A stretch of DNA of 64,000 bases from Schmidtea polychroa (Eukaryota), in contig CM097888.1 in assembly GCA_044892525.1 (NCBI GenBank), positions 8,990,001-9,054,000 of the forward strand, read 5' to 3'. The position numbers and the translations under genes are program-made. The notes beneath the pieces were generated by a model that was not told the origin of the DNA, did not search any database, and saw only the letters and a list, made by a program, of their open reading frames with translations. Shown here piece by piece: positions 40,104 through 64,000 of this stretch. Every line of letters begins with the position of its first letter. Position 1 is the stretch's first letter.

Positions 40104-40513
40104 TTTATAAATAAAAAAAAATGTTTAAATTGTTTGTCCTTTTATATTTATTTAGAAATGCTACTTTTATTTCATTGGTTAAATTGATATTAAGCATAAA
40201 CGCGCGTGTTAAAAAGGACTTGTGCAATAGATGTGCATGATTAACAAAGGCATGTGCAATCCAAGTGCATGATTATTTTTCTGTACAGGCACACACACAC
40301 ACACTTTTAACCTAAAAACATATAATTGTGATAAATTTTATCCAATTTATGTGTTTCATTAAGAATTTCATGATTTCACTCCTAATTATTGCCCTTTACA
40401 CACTTTCATGCACACAGTCACTTTTCCTACAGCCATTTAGTGTGTATGGCATATGTTTAATTAAACTATATAGACTTGTATAAGTAGAATTAGGAGTTTA
40501 CAACCTTATAGAA

Positions 40514-40730
40514 ATGTCTCAATCCAGCAGCCACAGTGAGGGGGAACAAGACAATTAACTGATAACTCGGCTCCGGACCCGATACATTTGGTTTAAGATA
40601 CACGAGTGGAACCAGGGACGAGATCCCAGCCCAGCGGCAAGCAGAAGCGAGGGGAACCCCACTGGGGGAAAACGAAGTTGAAGAAGCGGCCCTAAAGAAA
40701 CGAGGGAGGCCACGAAAGCCTAAATTATAA
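40514..40730 (+). pseudogene. Small AT-hook protein gene relic (ITRLRTRYIWFKIHEW motif; C-terminal KKRGRPRKP)
   Basis: MSQSSSHSEGEQDN*LITRLRTRYIWFKIHEWNQGRD..., with one frameshift to ...EEAALKKRGRPRKPKL*. A homologous motif lies at about 63940-63995. Confidence 0.55.
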
Positions 40731-41039
40731 ACTCGACAGTGATTTCCAACTATCGATGGAGTGTTGTGACTTCAATAATGACTCCATGTGATCATATTGT
40801 TATTTAAATTTCTTAATCTCCTTTTGTTTGTTTAATTTTATATTAGTTTTGAATGATCTCCTATTAATAAAATATTATGTTATTAATTCACTGACTTCTC
40901 TAAAAATCGAGGGTTAAATGTTTGACAATAAATACAGAGACTGTTTTGTGTAACCCGTTTGTCGCAAACAAAATTTTTGTATCTAATAGATGACTAGTTC
41001 TGTCCAACGTGTATATATAAATATATTTATTTCCCATCA

Positions 41040-41258
41040 ATGTTCAAGTTATTCGAAAATCTGAGGAAGGATCGGGAGCAAGCCCAGAATTGTACGTGGT
41101 TTAGCCCGGCCGAAATGAAAAAACGGACGGCCCAAATCTTGCAATTTCAGTCTCAAACAGAACAAGATAAAATCGAAATTCGCGCGCTGAAGATTCAGAT
41201 ACGTGCATTGGAGACTCAGTTGAATCAGCGGCTCATCGATGTATCAACAGTCGTGTAG
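41040..41258 (+). CDS. 72-aa coiled-coil protein of the TWFS-motif family
   Basis: MFKLFENLRKDREQAQNCTWFSPAEMKKRTAQ...IRALKIQIRALETQL. It shares TWFSxxxMK with the relics at 51088 and 61525. Confidence 0.5.
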   Translation: MFKLFENLRKDREQAQNCTWFSPAEMKKRTAQILQFQSQTEQDKIEIRALKIQIRALETQLNQRLIDVSTVV

Positions 41259-41829
41259 ATCCGCCCACTGCCAACCGAGCTGGCCGAAATCTACCCACCA
41301 GCTCTTTAGGATTACGTACTTTGATTTCGACAATGATGTGATTATATTTTTTTACCTTAACTGTTTAATTTCTGTGTTTGTTTGATTTTTTTTCATTGGA
41401 CGAACTTCCCTCAAAAAATTATTATGAGATTTGATAATTTGGTTCACTGTCTTCTTTATAAATACGATTTTGAATAACAAAGAGACTACATTACGTAACA
41501 CCTTCATCATAAATGAAATTTCCTTATCGAATAAATGATTATTTCCTCACTACGTACACGCATGTATATACTAAAAAAAATCAAATTGTATTATAATTAA
41601 CAATAAGGCCCGTCGGTCGTTAGGGGAGAGATTCTTGACCCTTCTGATGTCTGAAGCTTTTGAGTAGATACCTGCGAACGCTGTGCCGGGGCTCGAGCGT
41701 TAAACGTGTGATTTGAGAGGTTTTGATTGATTGAGGTTTGAGAGCTTCCCGAGACAAGCTCTATTTTGGATGTAATAGGAATAGTGGATACAGTTATGCA
41801 TTGAAATACTATACTATATATAAGATATT

Positions 41830-42165
41830 ATTGGTGAGTTTTGGTTGTGGTTGAAGGGTAGGGGTGTTGTTGAGATGTAGTGGTTGAAAGGTAGTGGTAG
41901 TGGTTGAAAGATAGGGATTGAGAGGTAGTGGTTGAAAAGTAGAGTTTGGTGGTTGGAGGGTAGAGGTTGGTGGTTGAGATGTAGATGGGTGGTTGCAAGG
42001 TAGGGGTTATATGTTAGTGGTTTGAAAGGTAGCGGTTGAAAGGTAGTGGTTGAGAGGGATTGGTTGAAAGGTAGAGATTGATAAGTAGAGGTTGAAAGGT
42101 TGTGATTGAATGGTTGTGGTAGAAAGGTTGTAGTGGTGGTTGTTGAGAGGTAGAGGCTGTGGCCG
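41830..42165. repeat. Degenerate G-rich minisatellite (about 14-16 bp, GGTTGAAAGGTAGT-like)
   Basis: Repeated (g/t)ggttga(a/g)aggtag units read directly. Confidence 0.8.
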
Positions 42166-42199
42166 AGAGTTTTGTAGATATTAATAAATTACTCAAAGA

Positions 42200-42850
42200 C
42201 AAAAACAAATAAAACGTTGCAGTAATATGAAAAAGACAAATAAGTCAATATGGCTTTTTATGTTGTATTGGTTTGACTGATTGTATGATTTGTTTGAGTA
42301 TGAATTAGACTGTTTGTCATTCATATCTAGGGTGGTCTGTATTTGTATTGGTGATTTGATTTTGGATCATAGAGATCTTCCATTTAGTAGGTGTGTCCGT
42401 TTGGAGATTTCCAAGATAATGACGATATGATGAGGCAGTAGAGGTTGGGAGAATTGGATGGATAGGTTATAGGGTATGGATCAATAGTTTGAATATTGTT
42501 TGGGTTGTTTGCTTATCATATCTCGTAGGGTCTGTATTTGGATTGGTGTATTGAGTTTGCAACATTGGTGGCTTCTGATCAGTATGTGCTTCTGAGTGTT
42601 GTTCAATAGGTGTTGCTTCAGGAGCAACAGCTGTGGATGTTTAGAAAGATGATGGTTTTTGAGGTAGAGTCTGGGTGTTGGTGGGTGTTTGTTTGGATGT
42701 TGGCGGTACTTGGGTCTTCAGGTGAGTATAGTTTGGTGGTGGATAACTTTGGAGTATCGAATATTGAGGCAGGCAGGTCCTTTCTGATAAATAAAGTTGG
42801 TTGCCCGAAGAGGTGTAAGGTGCATGTTACTAGAATTATTTATTTCAGTT
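42200..42850 (-). mobile_element. RTE-like non-LTR retrotransposon, APE endonuclease relic
   Basis: Minus-strand fragments PTLFIRKDLP, TIIFLNIHS and SWKSPNGHT resemble the RTE endonuclease motifs (GV.ilirk, i.NiYaP, TWxSPxG). The region is heavily disrupted. Confidence 0.45.
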
Positions 42851-44926
42851 AGATTTTAAGATATTTCTCTTTTAAATGAAAATGTTACTGCTTTTATTTT
42901 TATTATTAAGATGGGTAGTTATTATTGTTATCAGTATTATTATATCATGATTGTTATTATTATTATTTTTAATATTATTCATCATTGTTACGAGCATAAG
43001 TATTATTACTGTGATTAACCATTGTTTAGTATTANNNNNNNNNNNNNNNNNNNNNNNNNNNNNNNNNNNNNNNNNNNNNNNNNNNNNNNNNNNNNNNNNN
43101 NNNNNNNNNNNNNNNNNNNNNNNNNNNNNNNNNNNNNNNNNNNNNNNNNNNNNNNNNNNNNNNNNNGTCCGCTAGATCACGACTGAGCTGGATCACATAC
43201 CGCCTCCTCCCCTTCCCCCTAGGGGAAATTTCTTAAATTCTTTTCAATGTGCACTACAGATCCAGATAACCCCTACTTTTTGAAAATTTTTTAAAAAGGT
43301 CCCCGCCCCACTTTCTTTTAATTTTTTTATATTATCGATTATGTAATAATTTTAATTTTATTTAAATCATTGATTACATCATAAATTTTAATTTTTTATA
43401 AGAAATTTTTTTATGTCAATATACTTGAAATTTAATTCTCTATTAAATGAAACTATGATGTAATCAAAATTCTGAAATTTCATTTTTAGTACACCATTTT
43501 TGAATTTACACATCTTTTTAAACAAATCTTTCTCATTCATTCATTTTTATTGGAATATTTACAAACCAACATGTTTTAGTTACAAAAAATAGTTATCAAT
43601 AAATCGAATAAGGGTAGGAAATTATTTAGAATCAATAAGTAACACACAGACGATAAAAATCAGGACAAGGCAAAGTTTATGCATTTAGTATTGCCAGGCC
43701 TAATGAGCAAAAGTTTCTGTGCCTGAAAGACACGGTGGATATTTGTTCGCGTCCACAAGGGTCGTCTGTGCCTCCCCAAGTGGGGTCAGAAGAACCTGGG
43801 CATTATAGTTCTCCGTACGGAACATTACGCCTAGCATGTCAGGGTAGTCAACTACCAGCACATTCGAAACGTATTAAAAATATATTTCAAAATACATGAC
43901 AATACGTCATTGGCACTAAAACCAAATTAGTTAATGTTTTCACTAACAACAATATATATTTACAGAGGCTTCTCACTAGTTGGATTACAACCGCCCACCA
44001 CGACGATCAGCTTGTAAATATTTATTAATTAAGGGATAAAGAGGGCCCCCAACCCTATTATATTTAATTTACAAAATAATGTTTTCACTAATGCTCTCCG
44101 TCCGTTTTCTCACTCTTCTGAATTTTCTCTGGAATTTTTCGGTAATCTAGCATTATTATTATTATAATTATTAGTATTATTATTAATTATTATTTATTAT
44201 CATTATTATTATCATTATTTTTAAGATTTTATTCTGAGAACAAATCCTAATAATATCAACAAATTTGTATTTATTTTTTCATATAATTATTATTATCAAT
44301 TACTTAGTTGGCAAAGTCCTAAACAAAGAAATCTATTGAACCATCTAATAAAACAGAATATGAGCATCCTTTAAATTAATTAATAAAATATTTTTATTAG
44401 GATAAAGAAATAAACCTAGTTCTTTCCGAATTTCATTCATATATCAAGAGCTAATGACAGTAAGTTGGATTCATCTATAAATTTATATCACATTATTTAT
44501 TATTTAAAGTTCAACTACCCATTAATGACTGAGATAAAGTTTCGCAAACAATAAACTGTAGTTCTCTGGATAGAAACGAAAGAATTTTCAAAAAAGTCAC
44601 TAAAATTTTATCACAAATAATATTGAATAAATAATTTTGAAATTCTGTTCTAAGATAGAGTTATAAAATTATTTTATATACAAATTAACTTTACTTTGAA
44701 TTTAAAAAACTAATTATAAATTTGTTTTTATATTTAAACAAAGTTTTAAACAAGTTAAAATCAAATTATTTTTCGTAAAAATGATTATTTAAAGATGATG
44801 AACTATAAAATAAATATTATTATTACTTGAAAATATTTTTATTTGTTATTGGAAATTTAGTTTTCATACATAAATTATTACCAAAAAAAAATTTAATATC
44901 TTTATAAAAATATTTAAGCATAAGTA

Positions 44927-47309
44927 CCGTATTTTAGCGCATATAACGCGCGCGTTATACGCATTTTTACAAACCGCGCACCCCCCCCCCCCCCATGCGC
45001 GGTATCTGTGGGTGCGCGCTTTATGATTTATATTTTACACGTGGCGGCATTGCCAGTGGAAATATTTTTATGATGTGACAGTAACCCTACCATCGGTTTT
45101 AATGTTACGTTTGATTGCAACCAGATTTACTTTTAGTTAAACAAATTATTTTATTTTTATAATATTAAATAATAATTTGCTATTTATTTCTGTTATGTAG
45201 CAATGTTTCAGATACCGAGTTTGTGTTTAATATGGATCGAATGGCGCCAGCCGGAGTTGCATTGTTCGTATTGACACGTCAGGAAAACAAATAGAAATAA
45301 AGAAATTATAAATTTTAATGTTCACGTTATCTTATATTAAATTTTTTTATAGATATAATAAATAAAACTTCGATGTTTTTTTATTTATTTTTGATCCCAC
45401 ATGTCATTTCAGTAACTTGTTGCTGTTTTAATCTCCGCCATCCTCAAGCTCTTCTTCGCCATCACTCTCCTGGAAACCTTCGAAGCTCTCGTCATCTGAA
45501 CTGGCCTGAAACATGTCCATGACTCGCTGTAGGCGCTCTTCTTCGATTGCCACATCATTTCCCTCTGCTTTTGATGCTTCACTGTCTCCCTCTCCATCTG
45601 TCGAGTCATTGGCGCCAACATCGGGAACGTTACTGGGCATAATTCCACACTTCTTGAATCCATTTGTGATTGTTGTCACCTTCACTTTCTCCCATGCAGT
45701 TATGACCCACTTGCATACTTCAACGTATGTGGCACGGCGTTGTCTACCAGCTGGTGTGTATGTGTGGGACCCAGTTGAAATCCACTTGTCCCACTCCTCA
45801 CGAACAAACGTCTTGAATGGTCGATTTACAGCGACATCCAGTGGCTGAAGCTTGCAAGTGAGGCCACCCGGGATGACGGCGATATGGGCGCCCGCTGCGT
45901 TTATCTTCTTTTGAACAGATGACTCTTTGTGAGCTGTCATGGCATCAAAAACAAGGAGAGATTTCTTTTTGAAAAATCTGCCTTTCCTGTTGCGGAAGCA
46001 TCTGTCTGTCCAAATCCCCATGACGTCCGTGTTCATCCAACCCTTTTTATTGCATGTAACGACAACACCACTTGGAAGCTGTTCACGTGGCATTGTCGCA
46101 CGTTTGAAGATAAGCATTGGCTTGAGTTTCTGGCCTCCAGCGGTGCAGGCTAAGACGACGGTAAACGAAGTTCTTTCATTTCCTGTCGTAGCAACAGCGA
46201 CCGTCTTAACCCCGACTTCAGCAACTGATCGCGTTGGAGGGATATCAAAGACCATGGGCACTTCGTCCATTTTGATGACGTCATTTGGTGAGAGATCGTG
46301 TTGGCTGATTTCCTTATGAACAAATTCTCTGAAATCATCCAACTTCTTTTCCCAATCATCCGGAAGTCGCTGGCCGACTGTTGTTCGAGCACGCATCGAC
46401 AAATTATTGCGCCGCATAAATTTGTAAACCCAATTGTACGAGCCACCTTTGAAATCATCTAACTTCATTTCAACGGCCAACAATCTTGCTTTTGCCTTAA
46501 TTGCCACCGTCGATACAGCTCGATTATTCTCTCTCTGAGCCAAAATCCACTTCACCAAATTCGCCTCCAGATGTGGCCATCTCGCCTTGCCGCCACGCCT
46601 TGCTCTTTTTCTCGGATTCATACTTTCCAGCTCTGTCTCGTCCTTCCTCCACTCTCGAACCGACGTCTCACCAACACCAAACTCCCGACCCGCCGCTCTA
46701 TTTCCCTTCTCCTTCGCATACTTAATCACCTGAAGCTTAAAATCAGCTGTGTAAGACTTTCTTTTAGGCATATCGAATAATTTATGATGGGTTTTAAAAT
46801 ATCATGAGTTTATATTGTGCTATGAGAACAGAGAATTCGTTGTTTTATTTTGTCAGCCGTTGGAGTAAGACCAATAGTTTTAAACGGATCTAACCACGTG
46901 GCAATTTATCAGGCTGACGACGTCATCACACGCCGACAACCCAGCCAATAAAATTAAACGAATTTCACACGTGGTTTGTTACATCGCTGAACTTTAAATT
47001 TATGACTCGGCTTGTTTTGTCGCGGAGTCTCGTGATTATTAATACGTGATGCAAACAGCAACAATAAACAAACACGGAATGTAACGCTGTTTAATATTGA
47101 GATTATGAATTATTTTACAAACAAAATTTATGGAGAATAATTAATAAGTATACTAAACCGCATTTTTGGAAATTTACCAGCATCAGGTAGGTGCGCGCTA
47201 TAGGCCAGGGCGCGTTACACAAATTTGTATTTACACATACAATAAAATCCGCGCGGTATACAGGGATACGCGTTATACGCGGGGGCGCGCTATATCCGCT
47301 AAAATACGG
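44927..47309 (-). mobile_element. pogo-superfamily DD35D transposon (Passer/POGK-like), full length 2383 bp, TA TSD
   Basis: TIRs CCGTATTTTAGCG(C/G)ATATA at 44927 and 47309, both flanked by TA, enclosing an intact transposase ORF. Confidence 0.95.
45428..46771 (-). CDS. pogo transposase, 447 aa (Brinker-type HTH, CENP-B HTH, DDE_1), uninterrupted
   Basis: KSYTADFKLQVIKYA (BrkDBD); WPHLEANLVKWI...FKGGSYNWVYKFMRRNNLSMR (HTH_Tnp_Tc5); catalytic KMDE, LVFDAMTAH and LQPLD with 35-aa D-D spacing. Confidence 0.95.
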   Translation of the reverse strand: MPKRKSYTADFKLQVIKYAKEKGNRAAGREFGVGETSVREWRKDETELESMNPRKRARRGGKARWPHLEANLVKWILAQRENNRAVSTVAIKAKARLLAVEMKLDDFKGGSYNWVYKFMRRNNLSMRARTTVGQRLPDDWEKKLDDFREFVHKEISQHDLSPNDVIKMDEVPMVFDIPPTRSVAEVGVKTVAVATTGNERTSFTVVLACTAGGQKLKPMLIFKRATMPREQLPSGVVVTCNKKGWMNTDVMGIWTDRCFRNRKGRFFKKKSLLVFDAMTAHKESSVQKKINAAGAHIAVIPGGLTCKLQPLDVAVNRPFKTFVREEWDKWISTGSHTYTPAGRQRRATYVEVCKWVITAWEKVKVTTITNGFKKCGIMPSNVPDVGANDSTDGEGDSEASKAEGNDVAIEEERLQRVMDMFQASSDDESFEGFQESDGEEELEDGGD

Positions 47310-47399
47310 TAAATAACATTAATTAAATTAATCTTAATTTTAATTTATATTTACTAACAACAAGTTACCGTTTACTTAGTACAAGATATAAACAACATC

Positions 47400-47900
47400 A
47401 ACAACCGGATACCTACAACTAGATACCAACAACCTGTCACCAACTATGTATTACAAATGGCTACCAAGTACTAACAACTATCTACTAACAACTATCTACT
47501 AACAACCAGATACTAACAACCAAGTACTTACAACTAGACACTAACAACTAGATACAGTTTACATAGTACAAGATATCAACAACAACAACAACAACTGACT
47601 ACATACAACTAGATACCAACAACCTGTTACCGAATAGGTACTAACAACTATCTACTAACAACCAGATACTAACAACCAAGTACTTACAACTAGACACTAA
47701 CAACTAGATACAGTTTACATAGTACAAGATATCAACAACAACAACAACAACTGACTACATACAACTAGATACCAACAACCTGTTACCGAATAGGTACTAA
47801 CAACTATCTACTAAGTAGCAACCTAAATTCAATCACCCACCAAGTATTTTCAACTACTCACTAACAACTACCAAGTACTAAGCACTTACAACTAGGTGTT
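47400..47900. repeat. Higher-order tandem repeat: about 13-15-bp ACTAACAAC-type monomers organised in a 156-bp unit (at least 2 copies)
   Basis: gaataggtactaacaactatctactaa recurs at 47632 and 47788 (period 156), and the intervening blocks match. Confidence 0.9.
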
Positions 47901-49640
47901 AACAAATAGATTTAAAAGAAACTTGTTCTTCATTGAAGAAAATGATAATCATTGAATGAAAATAATAATAATAATAATAAAAATGCAACTGATTGACTGA
48001 ATTCAAGGTACCAGTACTTGTAAAATCTCAAATAACTAGGTAAAAATTGATGAAATTATTGTAAAAATAACATGTAAAACATTTAAATTATTCAAAACAT
48101 AGTAAATAAATATCATAAAAAGTCAATTAATGGACAAGAAAGAACTTGAAATTATAGTCATTGATAATCCAGTAAATATTTATCTTAAATACTAATCATT
48201 CAAGTTATTAATAAAGTAATTTTAATGATTTCAAATTGATTGACTGATTGCTCATGTTATTCAGAAAATTCAGTATAAATTCATTACAAATTATCAAAGT
48301 CGTCAATCTAGACTAAAAATATCTAAGTAATTATCATTAATTTCCAAAGGAAACTGATATGTCCACTAATGATAACATCTAATAAACCAGTAAATTCATT
48401 TATATTACAATATTTTACCATTCTTTTTATATCCAAGTGAATTCTCTACTAAAATCATCTAAAAAGCCTCAAATTTTCTTAAAATATCTATCTATCCATT
48501 CTCATTGATTGAAGAAAACTTCGATAAAATTATTCTCAGATGCTAAGAATCTTCATTGAAATAGAATTATTCATAAAGGATGGAAAACTTAATTGAGATA
48601 GTGTCTACTGGTATAATTGCTAAAGGAAAATACACTGACAAGTGATATTGAAATGTTTTTAATGAAAGGTTGACGTATAAGAGTGGAGATTTATTTATAG
48701 TATTTATTTATAGTAGGTGGTAGTGAGCTCCCCAGACCTCATATATCCCCTCCCTCCCCCCGAGGAAAAAAATTTAAATATAAAAGTTCAAGGTCAAGGT
48801 CATTTCTTTTTTTAATTAATTGGTCCAGAGGGCTCATACTTTTTTTCATCCCAAAAATTAATGTTCCCGCCAACAGATTTTATATCGTTCAATAAAATTT
48901 GACCATGACCTTGAACTTTTATTCTTTAATTTTTAATTCCTTATCTCGACAGCTTGCCGGTGATAATAGAATTGATGGGAGAAGGCGGTCGAACAAGAAA
49001 GGAAAAAGGGAAAAAACAACTTGACAGCTGTCAGAGATAAAAATGGGACAATCGGGGAAAGCAGGAGATGGAAAGTGGATAACACTCGATTATCTGGAGT
49101 GCCACAAGAGAAGTGAACTATATAAGGGAAAACTGGTGAACATGAAATCAGAACAAATTGAGAGCAAATTAAGACAAATTTGGAGCGAAAAGTAGAACGG
49201 AAACAGAACCAAGTTGAGAGCAAAACGAAACGAAATTAGAGGCAAAAAGTAGAGTAAAATTAGAGACGACAAGTAAAAAGGGGAATCAAAACAGAGTGAA
49301 AAGAGAAGTTAAAGAATCTTTTATAAAATTGAATATAAAGTAAAGGTGGAGTAAATAAATTGTGTGGTCAAAGTAAATAGAACAATCGATCAACATATTC
49401 TGTAATTGAGTAGTAGACGGCTAGTGATTATTGCTGTGATTACAGAAAGGGCTATTCTTCACGTAGTGTCGAAATAAGCTCTGTGTGATAAATTGGTTAT
49501 AGTTAATTGGTTGTAATTGAAATTTGTACTATTACGTGTGGATATTAATAAAGCTTATTGTGTTCGAGTGTTGAATTGCGAATTAATAAACACGCTTTGG
49601 AGCCAGATTAAAAGTTTGAATTTACAAATATTGTCACCAA

Positions 49641-49651
49641 CTCAATAACCC

Positions 49652-49709
<58 letters not shown>
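49641..49709. repeat. (TAA)n microsatellite, continuing after the solo LTR at about 50800-50815
   Basis: Read directly. Confidence 0.95.
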
Positions 49710-49710
49710 T

Positions 49711-50790
49711 TGTTAAGATCGAAAAAAAACGGGGATTACTGATCTCAACACAATGACTCCAATAAATAAAAATAAGTATAAATATAATATATTTAATGTG
49801 GTTGCGCGTATAAGTTTAATATGATGAATAAAGAACAAACTCCTTTCTCTTTATGAAACTTTTTATTTAACAATTTACAAAATAATAATTTACAATTATT
49901 GTACAGATATATAAGATAACGTATCTGTTAATCCCTGCTGTTTATCTCAGCCTGCTAGATATCGATGGCTCCTGTGTAGCACAACGATCGCAAAATAGAT
50001 GAAAGAGTTGGGCAAGCAAGTTGGAATTATTTTGGGGCTCCAAGGGAAGTTATCAATACTTTGTATTCGCTTTAAATTATTTACTCTCACCAGGATAATA
50101 ATTTATCTTTCAAATCAATAATTTTACATTTTTGAAAATAATTCGTCGACCAATAATTTGAATCTGTTCTTCCTTGAACACTAATACAATTGAAATTTTC
50201 TCACAGATCTGCTCTAACCAAATTTTAGTTTCTTCTCTCTCTGATTCTGAACTGCTCTCGTTAGCAATTTATATTGAATTCAAACGATCGAAATTTGAGT
50301 CGAATTCTTGTCGCTCTAATTTACACGTTCTCGTGTTTAATTCAACTGGTCGAAATCTGAGTTGAATTCTTATCACTCTAATTGAAATGTTCTCGTATCT
50401 AATTCAACTGATCGAAATTTGAGTTGAATTCTCTTAATGCTCTAATTGAGATTTTCTCGATGATTTCTAATCACGTTTTTTCGCCTAGTACTACTAATGT
50501 TAAATTATTCTCGAAATGATTTGTCTCTAAATTATGCGTCCCTGGTTCTCGTTTTGAACCAGTATTTATAATAAATATTATTGATTTAATATATTATTAG
50601 TAATATTATAATTACTATTTATAGTAACAGTATAATTAAATATTACTATATACAACTTATTTCTATTTATAGTAATTAATTAACTCTATATTTTATCTTC
50701 AGTAATTCTTCATTATTTTAATTTACACCATTTCTAATTATAGTAATTTTTATTTATTTTACAATCAAGGCTCCAGGCCTATCCCTAACA
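49711..50790. mobile_element. Solo LTR (1080 bp), gypsy-type
   Basis: Inverted termini TGTTA...TAACA; 4-bp TSD ATAT (49707-49710 and 50791-50794); internal repeats of about 40 bp (ttcaact..tcgaaat.tgagt.gaattct); no coding sequence. Confidence 0.75.
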
Positions 50791-51087
50791 ATATTACTTT
50801 AATAATAATAATAATTTGTTCATGTGAAGATTCGATCACTTTTGGTATCTTGGGTCATGATGATGGAGAAGATCTTACGATAGATCAGAATTGATGTGTT
50901 GCATTTCCCTATTGTTAACTACCATCCATACGTTCTACCCCATCGGAAAGCCTTGGTTAAATCCCTCTTAGCAATGGAGGTAGAGACTTTCACAGATGAT
51001 TGTCACCGAATTATTATTCATGTTCATAGAATATCCTTTAAATCTAAAATTGTAATCACAAATTATTGTCTCTAATTTTCACAGATT

Positions 51088-51841
51088 ATGGCTACTAATT
51101 CTACTCCCAAATCTGCAATACGACCCTACTTTCCGTATGCCGATAGAAATGCGGCTATCCAAGGCCTACAAAAGCCCAGATTGCGGCGTTGAAGCAAAAG
51201 ATTGATTGGTTAAAGGGTACTTGGTTTTCCCGACCCAAATGAAAGAAACACAGAAAAATCTATTCCGTAGTGAGAATTGCCGGAATAGTTTAATAGAAGA
51301 AATTCTGCCTCAGCGTAAAGCCCCACAGGCGACGGTGACCAAGAAGGTCTTAAACATCCCAATAGCCGAGGAAGAGAATGTATTTCCTGTTCACCATGAC
51401 CAAACCCAGGACAGGTACCGATCCACAGGAAAATCCTGCCAGGGGTGCGTAGATGCAGATCTCTCGCCTATAACCTCCCAAGTTATTTTCATGGGCACTA
51501 GAAGGGTGAAGCCCAAAACTACTCAACCACCCATGGCATCCCGCTCTTCGACTCAACAGATAAAACCCAAGCGCTGGCAATTATCACGAGCTGAGCGCAA
51601 GAAGTGTCAGAAATTGCGAGTCATTGAGAAAGAGAATAAGCGAAATACAAGTACCGTGCATGACAATATCGAAGTAGCTCCAACACTCCTATCGAATATC
51701 GTCACGCAATGTCGCGTCATCACGGCTGCTGGCGTAACCTGGGAAGACAACGCCTCTGAACTTTTCGACCTAGAAGCTTTGTTCGAGGAAGCCGAAGGCC
51801 GACAGACAATTAAATATCGCCTGCAGAAATATATGACTTAA
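51088..51841 (+). pseudogene. TWFS-motif family gene, frameshifted copy
   Basis: Across frameshifts it reads MATNSTPKSAIRPYFPYADRN...QIAALKQKIDWLKGTWFS/..QMKETQK...ENCRNSLIEE...LSRAERKK...FDLEALFEEAEG, colinear with 61525-62300. Confidence 0.6.
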
Positions 51842-53756
51842 TGTGATTCTCTGATTAGACTATTATAGCTTGATCTGATTGTTTGTACCGTATCCCTCAA
51901 TTTTTGTTGTAATTTGGTATAGTATTAATAAATATTGTTGTTCTGTAAGGTATTCAGTAACTTTAAATCTTATTTATTGTTTTGTATCTTCCTCAAACTC
52001 TACTTTAATACAAAATTGTAATTTTCATTTATTTAGATTTCATTTTATTTACATTTTCAAACATTTCTAGGAGAACGTCAGGAACAGAAACAGTTTGACA
52101 ATTCAAGGAAGATATATCCAGACTGTCACATTCGAGTTATTTAAGTCAGAAACTACGTTAACTACACCGCAGCCTACTTGAACTGAAAAACTATTAGTTA
52201 TTTGGGGTACTACCTCGTCGTCATCACTAATATTTAAAATCTCATTATTTACTATCTCGTCGTCACTATCGTCACTAATGGTTTATTATTTCAGATTTTT
52301 TCATCTCTTTTTTTGTGGGAATGTCTGAACCTAGTTCCATCTGCACGGTGATAGCGCAGTTGGTGGCAATTCATCCACCTGGACAACACGTCAGTCCAAA
52401 AAAAGGAAACGGCCAAAGAAAACTCAAGCGGACCCGCCTAGTAAGCGCGGCCACCCCGAACTGATCTTGAAGTTGTGACCGTGTTTCGAATAAATATAAT
52501 GTTTGGAATGTGATGATGAATATATTGAGGAATATAACATAAATATTATATTATCTATTATAATAATCAAGCTTAACAAATTTTAGAATTGTGGAATATG
52601 TACGACGCACATACTACATATGCATCATTTACACACTCACTCACGGATTAAGTATGCAAATCAAACATTCATCATGTAGTATGTGTGTGAATCATGAGAT
52701 GTCTTTATCGTTTAACAAAGACACTATGTGACTAGTTAACAAAGGCAATACGTGACTGGTTATTTGCAAATAATAAAATTTAAAACATTTATTTAATTTT
52801 TTAAATAATCAATAGCACAACACAAATTCTTTATAGGCACACATAGTATGTTCTCTATAAGGACATGAAATATTATCCGGAACTCCTTCCTTTCTTTTAA
52901 ATTATATTTTACTAATCTCAAAGATGCGAAATACTTCCTCAATATTTGTAGATTATTTTCATACAAATATTAATGATATATTAAAAAATTTTTTATGTTC
53001 TAAATTTTTAGTAGAGCATATAAAATTTGTCGTTATTTTCATTAATTATATATTTTTGCCTAACTAATGTTCTCGGGGTTTCGATGTAGTTGAGACCACT
53101 CAGCCTTATAATCTCTGAATATTTTTGTAACAATAAAACTAATGTATTCAATTTTGCTGATGGTCCAATAACTCCGACATTAAATTAGTCAACTCGCCCA
53201 AAAATTCAACCTAACTATTGAATTTTGAGTTAATATTAGCGAGATTTAAAAATAAGACACACAGAAACGTCTAACACGACGTTTTTAACATTTTCGAAAT
53301 TAATTAGAAATGTATTAGCAAATATTCTCAAGAGGCATAAGATCACTCGAAAAAGAGCATAAAAATAATAGAAGCATATGTCCACTCAACAAGAATAAGC
53401 GCGTAATAATAACATACACATTTTGTTTTGGAGGTTTTGACCATTTTTGCACCGCCTGGTTTCCATTTGTTGTGGTGACAGCAATGGAACCTGAAAAATT
53501 ACATTTATGTTACTTTGTGTTATTTTGTACATTTAAAAGACACTTGTTTTTTATTTAAAAGGAATTTCCTAATTAAATTAAAAATTTGTAAAAATAAAAA
53601 ATATTTGAATATTTTATGTGTGTTTTAATAACGTATAATTGGATTTTTGCTGATGAACTTTGAATTTGCAAATATAAATATAATTTGGAGTTTAATTCTT
53701 ACACATTTGACATAATTAATGTTAAGAATAATATTTTAATTAAGGTTAATATAATA

Positions 53757-53876
53757 CCAGTCAGAGGGGGAATGGCATTTACCTCTGACTGGCAGTTTGT
53801 TTGGTGGGTTTTGTATCGCGTCTGTGCGCGCGGTATGATTAGACCGAATCTTGTAAGTGTGTGTACACAGACGCGA
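53757..53876 (+). other. Two-hairpin structured module, copy 1
   Basis: Stem CCAGTCAGAGG/CCTCTGACTGG (11 bp, perfect), then stem TCGCGTCTGTG/CACAGACGCGA enclosing an inner CGGT/ACCG. Confidence 0.85.
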
Positions 53877-53979
53877 GAAGTAGGTTTTTATTTTGATAAT
53901 ATAGTTTGATATTGATTTTTAGAATTTGATTTGATTATTGGTTTTCTGGAAGAACGGAAGATTTGTTTGAACGGGTTTT

Positions 53980-54831
53980 TTTATGTGATGACTTCACAGA
54001 TAAAACAATGACAGTTGTGTTGGATCATTTTTCTAATGTTAATACAGAAAATCCTCTTCTTAGTATTAATGTTTTCTTGAAACACCGAGAATACCATAGA
54101 AGTTTAAAGGTTCAAGACGATTATTTCGAAACTGCTGGAAAAAGTCAGCTAAACGACATCAAGTTTTAGATAGACCATCATATAATCACAAAGGTTATTA
54201 CAGTTGGTTTCCCTCTATAATTTCAGCCATAGAATATTCGTATTCAATAAACACCATCCCAAATTGGCAGTAATTGGGGAGCTGACCGAAGCACTTCGAG
54301 ACTAGTGGCAAAATTATATGGGAAAATTCCTTTACTATTAAAAATGGTTCCCCTAAATTCTGATCGTGTTATCGGTAAATTATTTAGAGTTTTAACAACG
54401 TCACTTTAACGAACTATTAATAAATTGACAGGAATCGATAAATTTAATAATTAAACCACCTATTCTCGCAGATAATGTTAAGAACTTTTCAGTTGTCGTT
54501 GGAATGCGTGAAACATTCCAAGATTTAAAGCCACTCAATCCATATTTGAGGATATGATGAAGATATGATGAACGCTCGCAAGTTATGGTAAACAATTGGA
54601 AATTCATATCTTGAAGAGAATTATTACAAGTTGAACAAGCTGCTTCTAAATATATACTAGTAAAGTGATCATGATCTTTAATCGGGTTTACTAAAGTTTT
54701 CTTGTAAAGATAACACATAACTGCGGAAGAAAAAGAAATAAGGTCAGCATCTGTAAAAATTATTTTCTTTTTCGAATTTTTATAAAAATAAGGTAAAACT
54801 GTTTGCATACCAATGTTTTCAATTTCTTTAA
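53980..54831 (-). pseudogene. Polinton/Maverick-type protein-primed DNA polymerase B relic, 3' part (EndoVII-like DHDH..C..CN, exonuclease region, KGIFPY)
   Basis: IKDHDHFTSIYLEAACSTCNNSL, IPTTTEKFLTL, FIDSCQFINSSLK, SKGIFPYNF and LCDYMMVYLKLDV..LADFFQQFR occur in the expected order, with frameshifts and stops. Confidence 0.75.
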
Positions 54832-55035
54832 CACTAGATTTATGAAACCCGTCAATTTGACGGGTTTCAAATTTCATATCTATTAAATTAATAAAATGAA
54901 AGATTTTTTTTATTATGTTGGAAATTATTGGTTTATTGATATGAATATATATTCTATTTTATTTTTCGTTGGCTATCCTAAGTTCAAATATCGGTATGTG
55001 GTATACCTATTTCCCCGAAAATCCGTCTGTTTCGA

Positions 55036-55145
55036 CCAGTCAGAGGGGGATTGACTCTGGACTGGCAGTTTTGGCTTTTTTCTATCGCGTCTGTGTGCGC
55101 GGTCTGGTTAGACCGATTATTGTTGGTGTGCGCACACAGACGCGA
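55036..55145 (+). other. Two-hairpin structured module, copy 2 (inside the piggyBac 5' region)
   Basis: CCAGTC-AGAG/CTCT(G)GACTGG, then a perfect 16-bp stem TCGCGTCTGTGTGCGC/GCGCACACAGACGCGA with an inner GGTCT/AGACC. Confidence 0.85.
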
Positions 55146-55562
55146 GCAATGGAAGTTCGGTTGTTTTTGTTAAGTAGGTTTGATTGTTAATTGTAATCTT
55201 TTATAAATTTTTTTTGTAGAAATTATTGATTTAGTGGTGAATTCGATTAATTTGTGGATTTTTTTGCTGTGAATTCTGGAATTTTGGTTTGTTTTATTCG
55301 ATTAAAGTTGGTGTGGGTTTAAATTGGATTTTGTGGAAATTATGATGAATTTCATTATCTTCTGATCTTGAACTGGACAAAATGTTATTGTTCAAAAATG
55401 ATCCACGTGCACCTTTGGAGAACAATAAAACTGTTCATCTTGCTCTTAATCAATTTGACGGGTTAACTAATTTCAATATAAATTATTTATTTATTTGCAA
55501 TTTAATTTTGTGAGCATAGATTTAATTTTTCAGGGTAAGTTCAAAATATTTTCATAATAAAT

Positions 55563-57940
55563 ATGTATATATTATCTAGTTTTCCTAAATTGAATAGGGC
55601 TATTATGAGAAAATCTCGTAGGATTGCTGAATTATTACAAAAAATTACCGGTATAAATGAGAACTGCTCCGATTCTAGTTTTGTTAGAAATGAGGTTGAG
55701 CTATGTGAAAGCGAGAATGAAGTACAGTATTCTGATTCTGAGGAAATCGAACTCTCAGACACTGAAGAAGAAAGTATTTCTAATGTATGTCGCGGCAGAA
55801 AAAGATTGCGAATTCTTTCAGAAACGGACAGCAACGTTGAAATTCCTGGTGAATCACAAAAACGAGACATAGAAAATGGAATATCTGTTGATGGGACCAT
55901 ATGGAAAACCCTAAAAAAAAGTGTAAGTAGTGGCAGACCACAATTTTTCAATAAATTTACAGATGTAGGAGTGACCAACGGCTTACGCCAAAAGGAATAT
56001 TATGCTAGGTAATGTAACTAGCGCATTTGAACTGATAATTGATGAAAGTATGTTGGAACATATAAAAATTTGCACTGAATTAGAGGCATTTCGAATTTTG
56101 AAAAAAGAGTGGAAAATATCAAAATCGCAGTTACGCGCTTTCATAGCAATTTTATATGCGCGAGGAGCTTACGAAGCAAAATCTTTGAAGGCAGTGGCGT
56201 ACCAAGGATTTCTGGGGCCCTTGTGCAGATTTTTGGACGCACAAAATATTTGTCGAACGAAGTGATCCGAGGAACCAAACCATAGGCAGGCTTGGGGGAA
56301 GGTGATTAGCAACTCTCTGAGTAAATTTGCGCATTTTAAAACAGAAATAGTAGCGTTTCGGGTTGGTTTGAAAGGATATTTTGTTACTTCTCGGTATTCT
56401 CTGTATATAGAATGGGCACATGCCAGGTACCATCATGATATAATGAACAATAATTGTTGTTATTGTCACTAATTTATTAACACATAATTCTTAGAAAAAA
56501 CTCAGATCATACGCTTATTTCACCATAATATAAAATTGAATCACATGATAAAAAGAAAGAACAAATCAAACATATGTGACATATGTGGTTTACAACTATA
56601 TCCAATATAGATTCCTAATAATATTAAATGTATAAACCGTCCAAACTGTAGTTGCTGTCTTAATAAAAACAAAACAAACGCCAAAGCGATGCTTGGTTTG
56701 ATGACAATCGGGGAATTTATAATGCTCGAACGTTTAAATTTTACTAATTTTTCGTCCTGGGCACTTGTGCCGTGCACAACCTATTGCTACGCCACTGTTT
56801 GAAGGCATCATATTTATGGTCAAAGAAATGGGGACCGAGTTTTTTCACAGACAATGAGCAGAGACAAATTTATGGAAATTCTCCGATTCATACGGTTTGA
56901 CAAACGATTTGAACATAGTCAACGTTTACAAACTGATAAGTTTGCGTTAATTTCCTATACATGCAACAAATTTATTGAAAATTGTCAAGCCTGTTATAAG
57001 CCTGGTGAAAACATTACCATTGATGAACAATTGTTCCCCACAAAGGCTAGATGTCGATTTACGCTATATATGCCAAATAAACCAGATAAATTTGGTATAA
57101 AAATTTGGTTGGCGGCAGACGTAAATAGTAAATATCTGCTAAATGGCTTACCGTACTTAGGTAAAGACGAAACTCGGGGATCAGTACCTTTGAGCGAGTT
57201 CATAGTGCTCAAACTTGCTGAACCGTATTTAGGACGTGGAAGAAATATAACGACAGATAATTTTTTACGAGCATTCCACTTGCAAATAAATTATTTGCAA
57301 AAAGAACAACTTTGGTTGGAACTATACGAGCTAACAAAAGGGAATTGCCAAAATCAGCTTAAAATAAGAAAGATAACATGAAACGCTTCTCTACACTTCT
57401 TTACAAATCTGGGTCATGTGTTCTAACGATATATAAAAGTAAACCACAAAAAAAGGTTTTACTACTCAGCTCAAAACATAAATTTGTAAAAATTGAAGAT
57501 AATAATAAACGTTTGCCAGAAACTGTTTCTTTATATAACCAAACCAAATTTGGTGTTGATGTAGTCGACCAAATGGCACGGAAATATAGCGTAAAATCAG
57601 GGTCTCGTAGATGGCCTCTACAAGTCTTCTACAACATTTTAGATTTGTCGGGAATTAATGCTTGGGTGCTATACAAGGAAACCACGGGGGAAAATATATC
57701 CAGAAAAAAATTTCTTTTTCAATTGGCTGATGAACTTACAGCGGAATATCGAAGTGAATACCAAAAAGGTTCTAACCCATTATCGTCAATAGAAAATAAG
57801 TCTAATATACGCAAATCCTGCCAAATCGGACACTGTAAAAAAACAAAACCAATAATATTTGTATTAAATGTAATAAATATGTTTGTGGTAAATGCACACA
57901 AAAAATGATATATGTATGCAAAAAATGTGTTGAATAATAT
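55563..57940 (+). pseudogene. piggyBac (PGBD) transposase, multiply frameshifted and interrupted by a MITE
   Basis: MSRDKFMEILRFIRFD, ITIDEQLFPTKARC...KPDKFGIK, NITTDNF and YNQTKFGVDVVDQM (the DDD triad), plus a C-terminal Cys-rich domain. Confidence 0.93.
56192..56797. mobile_element. hAT MITE (606 bp) inserted in the piggyBac transposase
   Basis: TIRs CAGTGGCGTA / TACGCCACTG; perfect 8-bp TSD TTTGAAGG (56184-56191 and 56798-56805). Confidence 0.95.
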
Positions 57941-58134
57941 GTTGAAAAAAAAATATTTTGCTTTTAAATGAAATAAATTATGAATATATTCATCTATGTT
58001 TTTTCTATTAAATCAGTTTTGTAAAATATATATTTTTTTCAATAAATTTTGCTCAATACAAGCATTTTAATGTATCCGTCAATATGACGGGTTTCAGTAA
58101 AAATAGGTATGTAATTTCGTCCGTAAATCTAGTG

Positions 58135-59147
58135 TTAAGGAAACTAACAATACAATCTAACCCTAAAAAGACGCATCGGTAAGTCAGAAGGATCAAAAAC
58201 TAGATCAGACAGATTATAATTACTAATTCAATTTCTATGATTACTATCAACGACGTCGTATTTCAAAATAGCTTAAATCCTATAGATGAAACACAAATCA
58301 TCCGTATTGTTGATATTTATTATGCAGTGTTTATTTAATAATGATTTAGGAGTTGCAAGAGAAACCCTCCCACTCAATCTATTTATTTGAGAAAATTTTA
58401 TAATAACAAAATGTATTTCTTTTATTTTATTAATAATCCAAGTACTTCCCTTTAAATAAAGTAATTTTCTCATTACGAATAGCAACACCTTTATCTAAAA
58501 AGGTATCACTCATTGGTCTTGCAGAATTTGAAATGACGAAAGATTGAAATTGTCCGTCTTTTTCAAATTCCACTTCGATACAAAATTGAATCTTTACACA
58601 ACCCATTTCTCTGGTAACATTATTAAATTTATTAATTAAGGGTTTAAATTTAAATTTTCATCTATCATTTTAACTATTGCATGTGATTTACGTAAATCAT
58701 AATTTACAATCGGTTCTAATATTGTATCGTACTATCATTAATTATTTCATCATCAGAGTCGGAAAGAGTTATTATATCAACTTCATTTTGAGAGTCAGAT
58801 AGAAAATCTATATCCACATCATTTTCAAAATCAGAAGTTACCATATTATTTAAAACAACATCATCGTCTTCAGAATCCGAGAGAGTAATAATTTGATTAT
58901 TATTATTATTTAAATTTTTAATTTTAGATGGACGAGGGTTACTTATAGGCAAATCAGATATCCTTTTATTAATTGAAAAATAAATTGGTAATTTAAAAAT
59001 TTCTTTTTTCTTTAAAAGATAAAATCGATTTAAATGATCTTTATGTTGATCATAAAAGTTAGAATAATTTAATTTTTCAGTTGAATTACAAATGGGGCAA
59101 ACAAAATAAATAACACGGTAATAGGGCTGGCCATAATATTTTTCCAT
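58135..59147 (-). pseudogene. 5' part of the Polinton-type PolB gene relic, with an upstream Cys/His- and acidic-rich ORF (58716-59147)
   Basis: LKGSTWIINKI...TPKSLLNKHCIININNTDDLCF matches the GSgW...P..l..k..iiN..N.D..CF N-terminus of this family. GLDCIVSFL|KEIENIG reads through once the piggyBac and one TTAA are removed. Confidence 0.65.
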
Positions 59148-59259
59148 AGTTTTATGACAATTTTTGTCATGAACGGATGAATTGCAAAACTTTAGATATA
59201 AGATACCTAAATTTCAAAATAAATTATAAAAAGATTACATTATAAATAAAAATGAATAT

Positions 59260-59457
59260 ATGACAATCGACATTTGGATGATAAATGACAACACCACACA
59301 CGAACAATGTTTTAAAGCTGCAACAAATCACGTATGTTATCTGAAACCCGTGGAACAAGAAGTACCAGCTACAGGAGCCCCTAACTTTATCTTACAGCGA
59401 AAGCTAGAAGACATGGTGAGGAATGACACAATATACATAAAAGGTCGAACAGAGTAG
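59260..59457 (+). CDS. 65-aa hypothetical protein
   Basis: A GC-richer ORF island between AT-rich spacers. No family recognised. Confidence 0.3.
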   Translation: MTIDIWMINDNTTHEQCFKAATNHVCYLKPVEQEVPATGAPNFILQRKLEDMVRNDTIYIKGRTE

Positions 59458-59661
59458 AAAGGAGATAATTTTCTATATAAAAAATTGTAAATACTGGTGT
59501 ATATACTCAAACAATTTTCATATATAATGAAGTGCCCTAAGTACTATAACAATAAATTAAAGCGAAAAATGAATTAAAAATCTAAAATAAGTTAATAAAA
59601 AAATACAAAACCTATGTAATATTTATTTAAACCTATTTAATAATGTATATAATTAAGAAAA

Positions 59662-60177
59662 ATGACGCAAGAGAAGACAGGAGACAACAATTGCCCACCC
59701 ATAACAACCCAAATCAACGACGAAATTAAGAGACAATGGAGCAAAGTAATGTATCAATTAATGAACCAAACAAGAGCTTACATGGAAGAAGCAAGGGAAT
59801 GGGATTTCCACCAGTCACAATGGCTAACCCAAAATCTAAGGGCAGAAGCCGAAGCATGCAAACGAGCGGCTAAGATTACAGAGCGAAAATGTACGATGAA
59901 AATATAAAGAATCTGGAGAAAGAACTGGAAAAATGGGAAACCAATGAGAAGATAGAGGGACTAGAACAAATCGAAGTGAGAGATTAGGAAGCCAGATACC
60001 TCTCCTACCTCATTGATGAAGAGCTAAACATTTCGAGAGCACTAAGAGATGAAGTGCACGAACTGAGAGCACATATTCCTAGATATTACGTACCTCATGA
60101 TCCAATAGCCGTACATTTCGAATCGTCAGTAGAAAGTGACGAAGGGAATGGCGGGCAAGAGGAGACATTTGTGTAAA
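59662..60177 (+). pseudogene. Coiled-coil hypothetical protein relic (one frameshift, one stop)
   Basis: MTQEKTGD...RAAKITERK, then a frameshift to MYDENIKNLEKELEKW...RALRDEVHELRAH...GQEETFV*. Confidence 0.45.
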
Positions 60178-61524
60178 GTAAAATTAGTGAAAAAATAAAA
60201 ATTCAAAAATGCGGGAACTGTATCCCAAATAAAAAAAATTAATGAGTATAAGTTTAATATTAAAGGGACTGTAACCCTCTAAATAAATAGGAACTGTATT
60301 CCAAAAAATATTTATAATTGTATACATACAAGCAGCACTGTAACGCACTAATAATCACTGTAAATATTGTAGAAAATGAGAACGAAAATTGAGGAATAAG
60401 ATAGATCACCAACAAACGAACTAGGAGAAGGAGAGATCGAAATAGAAGTGATAGAAAGGAAGATAACTATTAAAGAAGAGTGGAGAGAAGAAAGACAAGA
60501 GAACGAAAGACTAATAAAAAGATGGAGAGATAACCGAAATGAGGTTCGTTATACTTGAAATGATCAGTTTCACGACTTTTATCCAAGTTTTCCAGCAATA
60601 ATTAGACGAACTCCCATAGAAATATATTTTCGTCGAGCTAGCATAGGTTTTAGGTTCTTCAGTCAGTTTTCTTGATCTCCAGCGAATGTCCATCGTTAAT
60701 AAACATCCGGCCAAATAAACATCATCAGCTGGTCGTCACGATCACACATTGACTAAACGATTCCACTAAATTCATCGACGTTGCTTATGCATAAAGCCAA
60801 AATGATTTTGATTAGATAAACAAGAATGCGAATAGTCAAGGATAGCGTACAAATTTTTCGAGTTGTTATCTAATATTTCGAGGAAGAGTCGACACAATAC
60901 ATACCAACCCATTTACAATCAGCGTAAATCCGGTATCGGAATGATGATATAAACATAGTCCTATTTTTCAAGAAGCCAGATTTCTGACCGCCGTAGTTGT
61001 AAACAAAAATTCACAAACTTTAATGCGAAATATAAACATTATTTAGATTATTTAATAGACATTTTTTCATAGTAGGAATTTATAGATTTTGATAATTAAC
61101 AGTATGAATGATTTTATTTTAAACCTAAACAATCGAATTGCCGACATGATAATTAATCAAGTTTGATGACTGAAAATTTTTCAAACCTAAGACAACGGGT
61201 ATTAATTAAAGTAATTTCCCTTCCGAAAAATCGCAAATCAGTAAAATACCTACATTTAACACTTTTACTAAATAAGTTCTGAAATACTCTCCTATTTGCT
61301 TGTAGAATAGACGATTTCGATAGGGTTTTCTAAAACCAGGGACGAATTCACAATAATTTTGATCAAATCCCACCCTTGATAAACATCAACGGGACAACTA
61401 AAATCACTAGATTTAAAAATAAATTCTAGAAATGAAATTGAGTGAGTGACATGAGTGGTGGTTGATTCTGGAATGTGTTAATAAAGTTTTCTTGCACTTG
61501 ATAATTTTCCTAATAATTCCAATA

Positions 61525-62300
61525 ATGTATGAACCAAACTTGCCTCAGCGCGGCCCGAAACCTTGTTTTTCGTGCGCCGACAAAAACACTGATAAGAAGA
61601 AGCTACATGAGCATATTGGGGCTCTGAAAAATGCATCGAGACGTTGGATCACACGTGGTTCTCCCAGCCACAGATGAAAGAGGAAAGGCTAGAACATTGT
61701 CATGATAGCCTCCTGGAAGAGAGTCGTTGTCAACGACTAACAATCAAAGCTCAATCGGAAGCGCTGCATCAGGTTTACTCCGAATCAGAACTGAGAAGAC
61801 GGGTTAGGGAATACCCAATAAAATATGGGACGAATGTCTTCGCGCTACACCATTGACCGGACGAACTTAATACCTCATCTTCGTCGAACTGCATGGGACA
61901 CGGATGAGAACTCTCACCTATTGTCGCACCGGTCCTGAATGGAACATCCAGCAGCCACGTTCTTTCTGAACCTGTACCTAGTGGGTCGTCTCATATCCCT
62001 CCAACAATTCGATCTGAGGACTCCATAAAAGTCAACCCGAAGAAGAGAAAGCGCCCATCCCGCGCCGAACAGACGCAGAAACGACGTAACGAGATCGCGG
62101 CATTAGAAGCTTCGTTATTTGCCGCTCAAGCAGCGAGTGCCTCGATTCCCAAAAATAGTCTAACTGTACAACCAACTACTTATCCCATAATTTCCTCCAC
62201 CACATCTACTCTCCAAGATAATCCATGGTTAAAGGTGGACATTGATGCCCTGTTAACCGAAGGAGAAATGGCGCAAGAAACCAAGGCCACGATGAAATAG
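61525..62300 (+). pseudogene. TWFS-motif family gene, disrupted copy
   Basis: MYEPNLPQRGPKPCFSCADKN...HIGALKN/ETLDHTWFSQPQMKEERLEHCHDSLLEE...KKRKRPSRAEQ...WLKVDIDALLTEGEM...MK*. Confidence 0.6.
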
Positions 62301-63899: not shown

Positions 63900-64000
63900 A
63901 GAGGGGCAGACGAAGCCACCAGGCTGGGCCAAGAAGAAGAGATCACCCGCATAAGGTCTCGGTGGATATGGTACAAGATCCATGACTGGACCTACCAAAA
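63900..64000 (+). pseudogene. Second IWxKIHxW-family gene fragment (truncated by the window end)
   Basis: EEEITRIRSRWIWYKIHDWTY aligns with ITRLRTRYIWFKIHEWNQ at about 40560-40615. Confidence 0.6.

Follow-up and report, generated by a model that had tools for sequence, protein, structure and literature searches.

A coiled-coil TWF gene inside the long terminal repeats of Burro-type giant gypsy elements of Schmidtea polychroa, and its predicted layout as a spliced gene

Introduction

The long terminal repeats (LTRs) of retrotransposons are customarily treated as non-coding, and the Sag gene of mouse mammary tumour virus (MMTV), which does lie inside an LTR, is found in U3, upstream of the transcription start. 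Rev of human immunodeficiency virus, Rex of human T-lymphotropic virus and Tas of foamy virus are small spliced regulators with basic helices. This work concerns a gene family found in a 64,000-nt stretch of the genome of the planarian Schmidtea polychroa (the window; C4:8990001-9054000 of the 781-Mb assembly). A preliminary description of this DNA had reported a coiled-coil gene with a TWFS motif, here called the TWF gene, at three plus-strand window positions, 41040 (locus A), 51088 (locus B) and 61525 (locus C), and had proposed it to be an accessory gene of large mobile elements.

Two described systems are closest. Burro/GYPSM1 elements are giant gypsy-like LTR retrotransposons of planarians (PMC6431247). 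As far as the compared parts of that source extend, they resemble the elements reported below in their 30-36 kb length, in a polyprotein region of ~4900-5000 aa (gag, in-frame fusion glycoprotein, protease, reverse transcriptase, RNase H and integrase (PR-RT-RH-IN), and ankyrin) and in RING and TRAF/MATH accessory open reading frames (ORFs); the text, the comparison having extended to it and not to figure 2A, names accessory ORFs but neither an LTR gene nor splicing (PMC6431247). The Caenorhabditis elegans gypsy element Cer1, placed sister to a flatworm errantivirus (PMC13524379, in whose main text the words Burro, Smed and Schmidtea are absent), encodes CERV. In the sections of the source considered here, CERV is made from a spliced mRNA, is needed for export of genomic RNA and has a helix-hairpin domain, a KRKK-type nuclear localization signal (NLS) and a Cys-rich part (PMC10309623). 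The TWF protein is likewise a lineage-restricted protein of a gypsy element with a spliced mRNA, in its case a predicted one. However, CERV has 517 aa, exons in common with gag, and M and G domains (PMC10309623), whereas the TWF proteins have 145-255 aa and are LTR-internal, and homology between the two was not detected.

The host elements are thus already known. No account of a protein-coding gene within Burro LTRs emerged from a full-text literature search. That search did not extend to Grohme 2018 and its supplements, to Repbase or to figures, which may bear on novelty. What appears to be new is the unification of the A, B and C types in one family and the start codon predicted at a splice junction.

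The TWF gene lies in both LTRs of giant gypsy/env elements

Each window locus retrieved its own relatives from the genome (A-, B- and C-type). Of the first-look candidates, which numbered 3530 for B, 3853 for A and 3912 for C, 150 were scored, and nearly all of those scored were matches. An intact A-type query gave 6679 candidates; none of these candidate counts is a copy number. Many B and C matches were paired 26.0-26.5 kb apart, with open frames of 250-265 aa. Three young elements, one per type, were read tile by tile. The B-type element (C4:71395250-71425589) has LTRs with TG...CA ends that are 99.976% identical over 4149 columns, a TACC target duplication and a TWF ORF in both LTRs. The LTRs of the C-type element (C3:125878431-125908950) are 100% identical and flanked by an ACTT duplication, and those of the A-type element (C1:152226197-152261976) match over 5204 columns at 99.75%, 30.6 kb apart. 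Element lengths are 30.3, 30.5 and 35.8 kb, with LTRs of 4.15, 4.19 and >5.2 kb (range 4.1-5.9 kb) and target duplications of 4 bp. The TWF gene is entirely contained within each LTR and ends 380-570 nt from the LTR 3' end, which bears out the proposed accessory gene of large mobile elements. Giant LTR elements and Polintons had been put forward as places to test; the LTR pairs support the former, while the Polinton-like sequences are separate neighbouring insertions. A Polinton origin was ruled out, as the gene occupies LTR pairs and not Polinton terminal inverted repeats. Loci A, B and C are decayed LTR fragments from three different Burro-type subfamilies, and all window copies are dead.

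The LTRs of all three types begin TGTTGGGC, and then follows a primer site common to all, TGGGGGCTCAGCCGGG, which we take to be that of tRNA-Pro. The internal order is also the same in all three: a RING ORF, gag, a Monjiviricetes-type fusion protein, PR, RT, RNase H, integrase, ankyrin, TRAF/MATH and accessory ORFs. Gag has zinc knuckles, and the env-like fusion protein stands between it and PR-RT-RH-IN within a single polyprotein; Pfam matches run PF03732/PF00098, PF24664, PF00077, PF00078, PF17917, PF00665 in each type, with one break in the A-type copy examined. MATH/TRAF, RING and ankyrin cargo was matched by Pfam in all three, and BIR and BCL2-like motifs had no Pfam match in the young elements at the thresholds used. 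A-type LTRs carry a second gene, A1, immediately upstream of their TWF gene (A2). A1 has a W-x-W-x-KIHEW motif and a C-terminal KRGRPRK, presumably AT-hook-like. It is almost certain that these elements follow the Burro plan and that the window loci are members of them, as identified here. Between B and C elements the RT-RH-IN protein is 97% identical (pS 0.64-0.90) while the LTR DNA is unalignable, a contrast that suggests LTR turnover or swapping.

Some element copies showed further features. Before the 3' LTR (L024:3400-3441, L119, L074, L139) a plain polypurine tract is absent and a GCAATTTT...GGG(T/C)CCC(C)GAGTG motif is common to all three types. An A-type element without env/pol (C1:134269228-134315506) contains a 10.3-kb insert that encodes an Ulp1-like protease and a non-LTR-type RT and lies between 589-bp direct repeats, 100% identical. 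At C158 and C4:46237542-46290506, three LTR-gene copies recur at equal steps of 20.5 kb or 26.2 kb, and these are tandem element arrays with common LTRs.

The three types form one protein family

The motifs quoted for the loci were confirmed on the plus strand, in locus B at 51121 (RPYFPY), 51219 (TWFS), 51236 (QMKE), 51272 (ENCRNS), 51584 (SRAE) and 51767 (DLEALF), in locus C at 61558 (KPCFSC), 61653 (TWFS), 61692 (EHCHDS), 62058 (SRAE) and 62238 (DIDALL), and in locus A at 41094 (TWFS). The copies had been called too diverged at the DNA level for recent duplicates, and self-blastn indeed gave no DNA match among them. Read-through translations, with X at frame breaks, were compared against 2000 shuffles. 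The kinship of B and C was clear (score 155, reached by none of the shuffles, maximum 69); that of locus A on its own was marginal with C (49, 0/2000, maximum 48) and not significant with B (35, reached by 344 of 2000). The A-type can nevertheless be linked firmly to B/C because the profiles of intact relatives align, without gaps over 80 columns (HH probability 96.9%, E 1.4e-10). A hidden Markov model (HMM) of B/C gave each of the 12 A-type rows a score of 14.2-36.1 bits (shuffle maximum 11.3), and reciprocal HMM scores exceeded all shuffles in 12/12 and 21/21 rows. On this profile evidence the A, B and C types are a single protein family, with K33, E40, T42, W43, F44, M49, K50 and E69 invariant across 18 rows.

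The proposed architecture of coiled coil, basic block and acidic tail held in part. The basic block, with 9-12 Lys/Arg per 20 residues, is present in nearly all intact proteins; the acidic tail is confined to B/C, where the C-terminal motif reads [FV]D[LI][DE]x[LM][LF]A[DE] and the last 20 residues carry a net charge of -4 to -7 in most proteins, whereas the A-type stops after the basic block. Structure prediction gave a helix at 13-40, a TWFSP turn, a helix at 46-98 (pLDDT mostly >85), a basic helix at 177-196 and otherwise disorder. Pfam returned no family for B, A2 or A1, with a single sub-threshold AAA_13 row. With the B/C alignment as query, a word-index search across 5.8 billion clusters, restricted to lengths of 130-447, gave 0 of 5661 candidates at E<=0.001, and a profile search of 1.84 billion representatives gave one match, an A-type protein without a name that comes from ENA contigs of 549-638 bp. 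Foldseek against PDB and BFVD gave no match at E<=0.001; the best VIA-align hits (Z 10.5) were generic helical hairpins only, and the best ESM Atlas value, 0.84, is a lead only.

The TWF gene is under purifying selection

The expectation that intact copies would have dN/dS below 1 was met with pN/pS of 0.12-0.56 in 15 of 15 independent pairs, no sequence being reused, with Fisher p<0.01 in 14. Constraint was tightest in the core (median omega 0.05) and in the basic block (0.06-0.14). Shifted frames gave omega of 1.0-2.9 within B and C, without the deficit of the real frame. Synonymous sites were saturated in the comparisons. These ratios indicate that the TWF gene is kept by purifying selection in all three types.

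The LTR is predicted to be laid out as a spliced gene

From 5' to 3', the LTR consists of an A-rich part, a TATA box 0.35-0.65 kb in, and short predicted exons with GT(A/G)AG donors. In the B/C types, a pyrimidine tract and YAG lie at most 13 nt from the ATG in 48 of 50 retained contexts (null 28%). The A-type acceptor is instead an in-frame AG|TG (24 of 30 contexts, 23 of them exactly 114 nt 5' of TWF), and a conserved upstream ATG is absent before it. The A-type donor A|GTAAGT occurs in 30 of 30 young copies, with a preceding base that toggles; diverged A-type copies have 10 distinct exon ends, all with a terminal A (donor found in 20 of 26 rows), and no conserved rival donor was found across 900 nt 5' of the A2 acceptor in 11 cassettes. 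We predict that the A-type start codon arises through splicing, when the exon-terminal A meets the TG of the acceptor at the junction to give an ATG. The B-type ATG needs no junction, and there the last exon base varies (G in 23/30, A in 7/30), in contrast to the fixed A of the A-type, which argues for the same prediction. The ATG at 41040, previously taken with the short TWFS ORF as its beginning, falls where relatives have their splice acceptor; the motif stands, and the ATG is probably not the native start of the locus A gene.

An AATAAA is located +105..160 nt 3' of the stop in 15 of 21 B/C genes (0.68 expected). The predicted intron is retained in all 60 copies, with no spliced retro-copy among them, which points to copying via unspliced RNA. 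All 60 are free of an ORF within 1.5 kb 3' of the donor, and donor and ORF lie 3.2-24 kb apart in every one of the 19 matched copies. Contigs from four presumed-RNA runs covered a B-type LTR in patches, and a GT-AG joint was not seen at the predicted sites, an uninformative outcome given the coverage. A gene in U3, as for MMTV sag, is disfavoured by the TATA and donor motifs upstream of the gene. The TWF gene differs from Sag in its predicted position downstream of the start site (R/U5), and homology to Rev, Rex, Tas or Sag was not found. Given that position, the gene would be complete even in a solo LTR.

The 3' end of the predicted first intron repeats exon 1 in both B (L021:4636-4706) and C (L116:4980-5058), although the two sequences are unrelated; exon 1 and its intron-end repeat change together across subfamilies.

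A possible regulator of unspliced element RNA

The account we tentatively favour, at somewhat below an even chance for the whole, is that a spliced, LTR-only mRNA would encode a Rev/CERV-like regulator of unspliced element RNA. Transcription would start at the LTR TATA box, the first exon would be spliced to the acceptor at the start of the TWF ORF, and polyadenylation would occur ~130 nt 3' of the stop, giving an R of ~3 kb that holds the entire gene. With intron and poly(A) signal inside the LTR, the element would have to make two RNAs from one promoter, namely the short spliced RNA and an unspliced one that reads through and thereby restores the LTR. The small basic TWF protein from the former would promote the unspliced RNA through escape from splicing or early polyadenylation, and nuclear exit. 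The logic would be that of Rev because a small basic protein of a short RNA would promote a long RNA, as CERV does for Cer1. The predicted basic helix at 177-196 is constrained and fits the Arg/Lys-rich type of NLS or RNA-binding helix; it possibly reflects a nuclear role and may bind RNA, while the helical hairpin may oligomerise.

Several points weigh against this account. Splicing and expression of the TWF gene are predictions read from DNA, and the tests support an LTR-gene architecture rather than regulator activity. A leucine-rich export signal was sought by eye only and none was demonstrated; the hydrophobic acidic B/C tail fits export or activation alike and, as we would judge it, looks equally like an activation motif, and the A-type is without it. 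Sequence, profile and fold searches found no link to Rev, CERV, Tat or Tas. The B/C acceptor count followed the removal of 14 contexts without ATG at the expected place, and the young C subfamily is without AATAAA (5 of the 6 misses). Copies for dN/dS were picked as intact frames and are related, so the counts are not independent events, and the B-C divergence (38% aa, against 97% for RT-IN) is not special, other accessory ORFs being at 27-79%.

A close rival is that the same gene encodes a Tas/Tat-like transactivator of its own LTR, the basic helix binding LTR DNA or nascent RNA and the acidic tail recruiting the transcription machinery, with A1 supplying an AT-hook in the A-type. The selected acidic hydrophobic C-terminal motif of B/C and the KRGRPRK end of A1 would suit this role, and LTR DNA can scarcely be aligned between B, C and A, against 82-97% identity in pol, as expected if a protein and its cis target co-diverge. 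However, A-type TWF proteins keep core and basic block without the tail, Pfam detects no DNA-binding domain, and export of the intron-bearing LTR RNA is left unexplained; we consider a transactivator unlikely, if near to the RNA regulator in standing. A host-directed accessory protein, acting against piRNA/PIWI silencing or cell death like the RING, TRAF/MATH and BCL2-like cargo, is improbable in our estimate. Its core signal is strongly purifying, not diversifying, and no similarity to known host-interaction domains was found, although accessory ORFs diverge fast and solo LTRs could express the TWF protein in trans. In the passages considered, Burro has ubiquitination and apoptosis modules (PMC6431247) and smedwi-2 knock-down raises BURRO1 RNA (PMC8532177), both of which would agree with such an antagonist.

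The long predicted helical hairpin and the unusually long predicted strong-stop region would also be compatible with a structural or packaging helper, a coiled coil with Gag particles or the long 5' RNA as its binding partner while the minus strand is synthesised across a 3.5-kb R-U5. The NLS-like KRKR motif and the separate small mRNA that is predicted suit a nuclear regulator better, and no link to capsid or nucleocapsid folds was found, which makes a helper quite improbable. That there is no functional element protein at all, the frames being open by chance or belonging to a domesticated host gene family, would agree with the broken state of all three window copies and with an expression that is predicted. 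It is largely refuted by purifying selection with saturated synonymous sites and by copies that travel in the LTR pairs of young insertions, and we regard it as extremely improbable.

Three subfamilies with unalignable LTR DNA all keep the TWF gene, the splice acceptor and mostly the poly(A) signal inside the LTR. If the TWF protein is Rev-like, it would be the second case after CERV of RNA control in the style of complex retroviruses in a gypsy element, at a novel position in the genome organisation, and the solo LTRs that are numerous in planarian genomes would be potential trans-acting genes. A broader picture is conceivable but doubtful: Burro LTRs would be self-contained spliced genes with promoter, intron, ORF and poly(A) signal within a multi-kb R, a Rev-like protein from any of thousands of solo LTRs could set in trans the balance of spliced and genomic RNA of full elements, the start codon would exist only at the junction in one lineage, and alternative acceptors would choose between the AT-hook and the TWF protein. 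The TWF gene offers a small handle, accessible to RNA interference, on the repeat that predominates in a regeneration model.

The window and its surroundings

The window is AT-rich eukaryotic DNA crowded with transposon debris, and its features are collected in Table 1. In locus A, ~20 codons are missing before TWFS (DNA gap at 41086-41094) and an in-frame stop occurs at 41256. Locus B has two frame changes, near 51171-51180 and 51230-51236 (intact B-type copies ~249 aa), and locus C one, near 61626-61635, with two in-frame stops (intact C-type copies ~254 aa). The ~10-kb spacing that had been noted holds between A, B and C but is not a regular period, since two additional TWF ORFs directly right of the window (C4:9054360 and C4:9061301) make the gaps ~10, 10, 3 and 7 kb. 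A regular 10-kb array or tandem gene cluster was ruled out by the three subfamilies, the unrelated flanks and the further copies at 3 and 7 kb; the spacing is accidental nesting within a repeat-rich region. B and C as the LTR pair of a single element were likewise ruled out, the types sharing 38% aa and their LTR DNA being unalignable.

Table 1. Features of the window (window positions)
Feature	Position	Strand	Evidence
A-type LTR fragment, decayed, two-gene cassette remnants	40497..41304	+	74-93% DNA identity, piecewise, to LTR loci L141/L142/L153
A1 remnant (first A-type LTR gene), broken, middle deleted	40514..40731	+	two tblastn pieces, different frames, to intact A1 of L136; HMM E 6e-14
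Locus A, A2 (A-type TWF gene) remnant, truncated	41040..41304	+	72% aa to L041, residues 1-108
B-type LTR fragment, ~1 kb	50943..51954	+	75% DNA identity, 1058 columns, to L143
Predicted splice acceptor of locus B, pyrimidine tract and AG, 3 nt 5' of ATG	51065..51084	+	sequence; family-wide conservation
Locus B, B-type TWF gene	51088..51841	+	three tblastn pieces, three frames, to L019, 44-52%
AATAAA, predicted poly(A) signal 3' of locus B	51927..51932	+	sequence; position conserved in family
Burro 3' internal ORF remnants (TRAF/MATH gene and two accessory ORFs)	59236..60539	+	tblastn 46-67%, blastn 64-71% to young elements
C-type 3' LTR fragment, deletion at 60540 joins internal region	60541..62805	+	85-88% DNA identity to L101/L145
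Locus C, C-type TWF gene	61525..62300	+	63-74% aa to L093
AATAAA, predicted poly(A) signal 3' of locus C	62408..62413	+	sequence
Next A-type cassette start (A1 remnant)	63829..64000	+	tblastx 40562 vs 63942; its TWF gene outside window at C4:9054360-9054698

Window positions 30289-64000 have an inverted duplicate 1.2 Mb off, at C4:10.205-10.242 Mb (98.7-100% identical), which is either a segmental duplication or an assembly duplicate. ORFs that their motifs mark as presumably Polinton/Maverick-like occur at window 54401-54958 and 58174-59213, at C4:9.068-9.081 Mb and at C2:151.42-151.435 Mb, and one such copy sits inserted within a B-type element.

A Tc1-like element with 53-bp inverted ends occupies 21221-25142, and inside it is a small gypsy element with two 629-bp repeats, 100% identical. 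At 45428-46771 on the minus strand, an ORF of 447 aa without interruption encodes what we presume to be a pogo-like transposase; broken transposons, presumably piggyBac-like and Tc1-like, are found at 55.1-57.9 kb (plus strand) and 6415-7670. A 33-bp tandem array at 15609-15999 holds open frames, and 14-bp arrays lie at 41856-42156 and 47461-47814, the former of which (41.9 kb) is similar to sequence close to the 3' internal end of the A-type.

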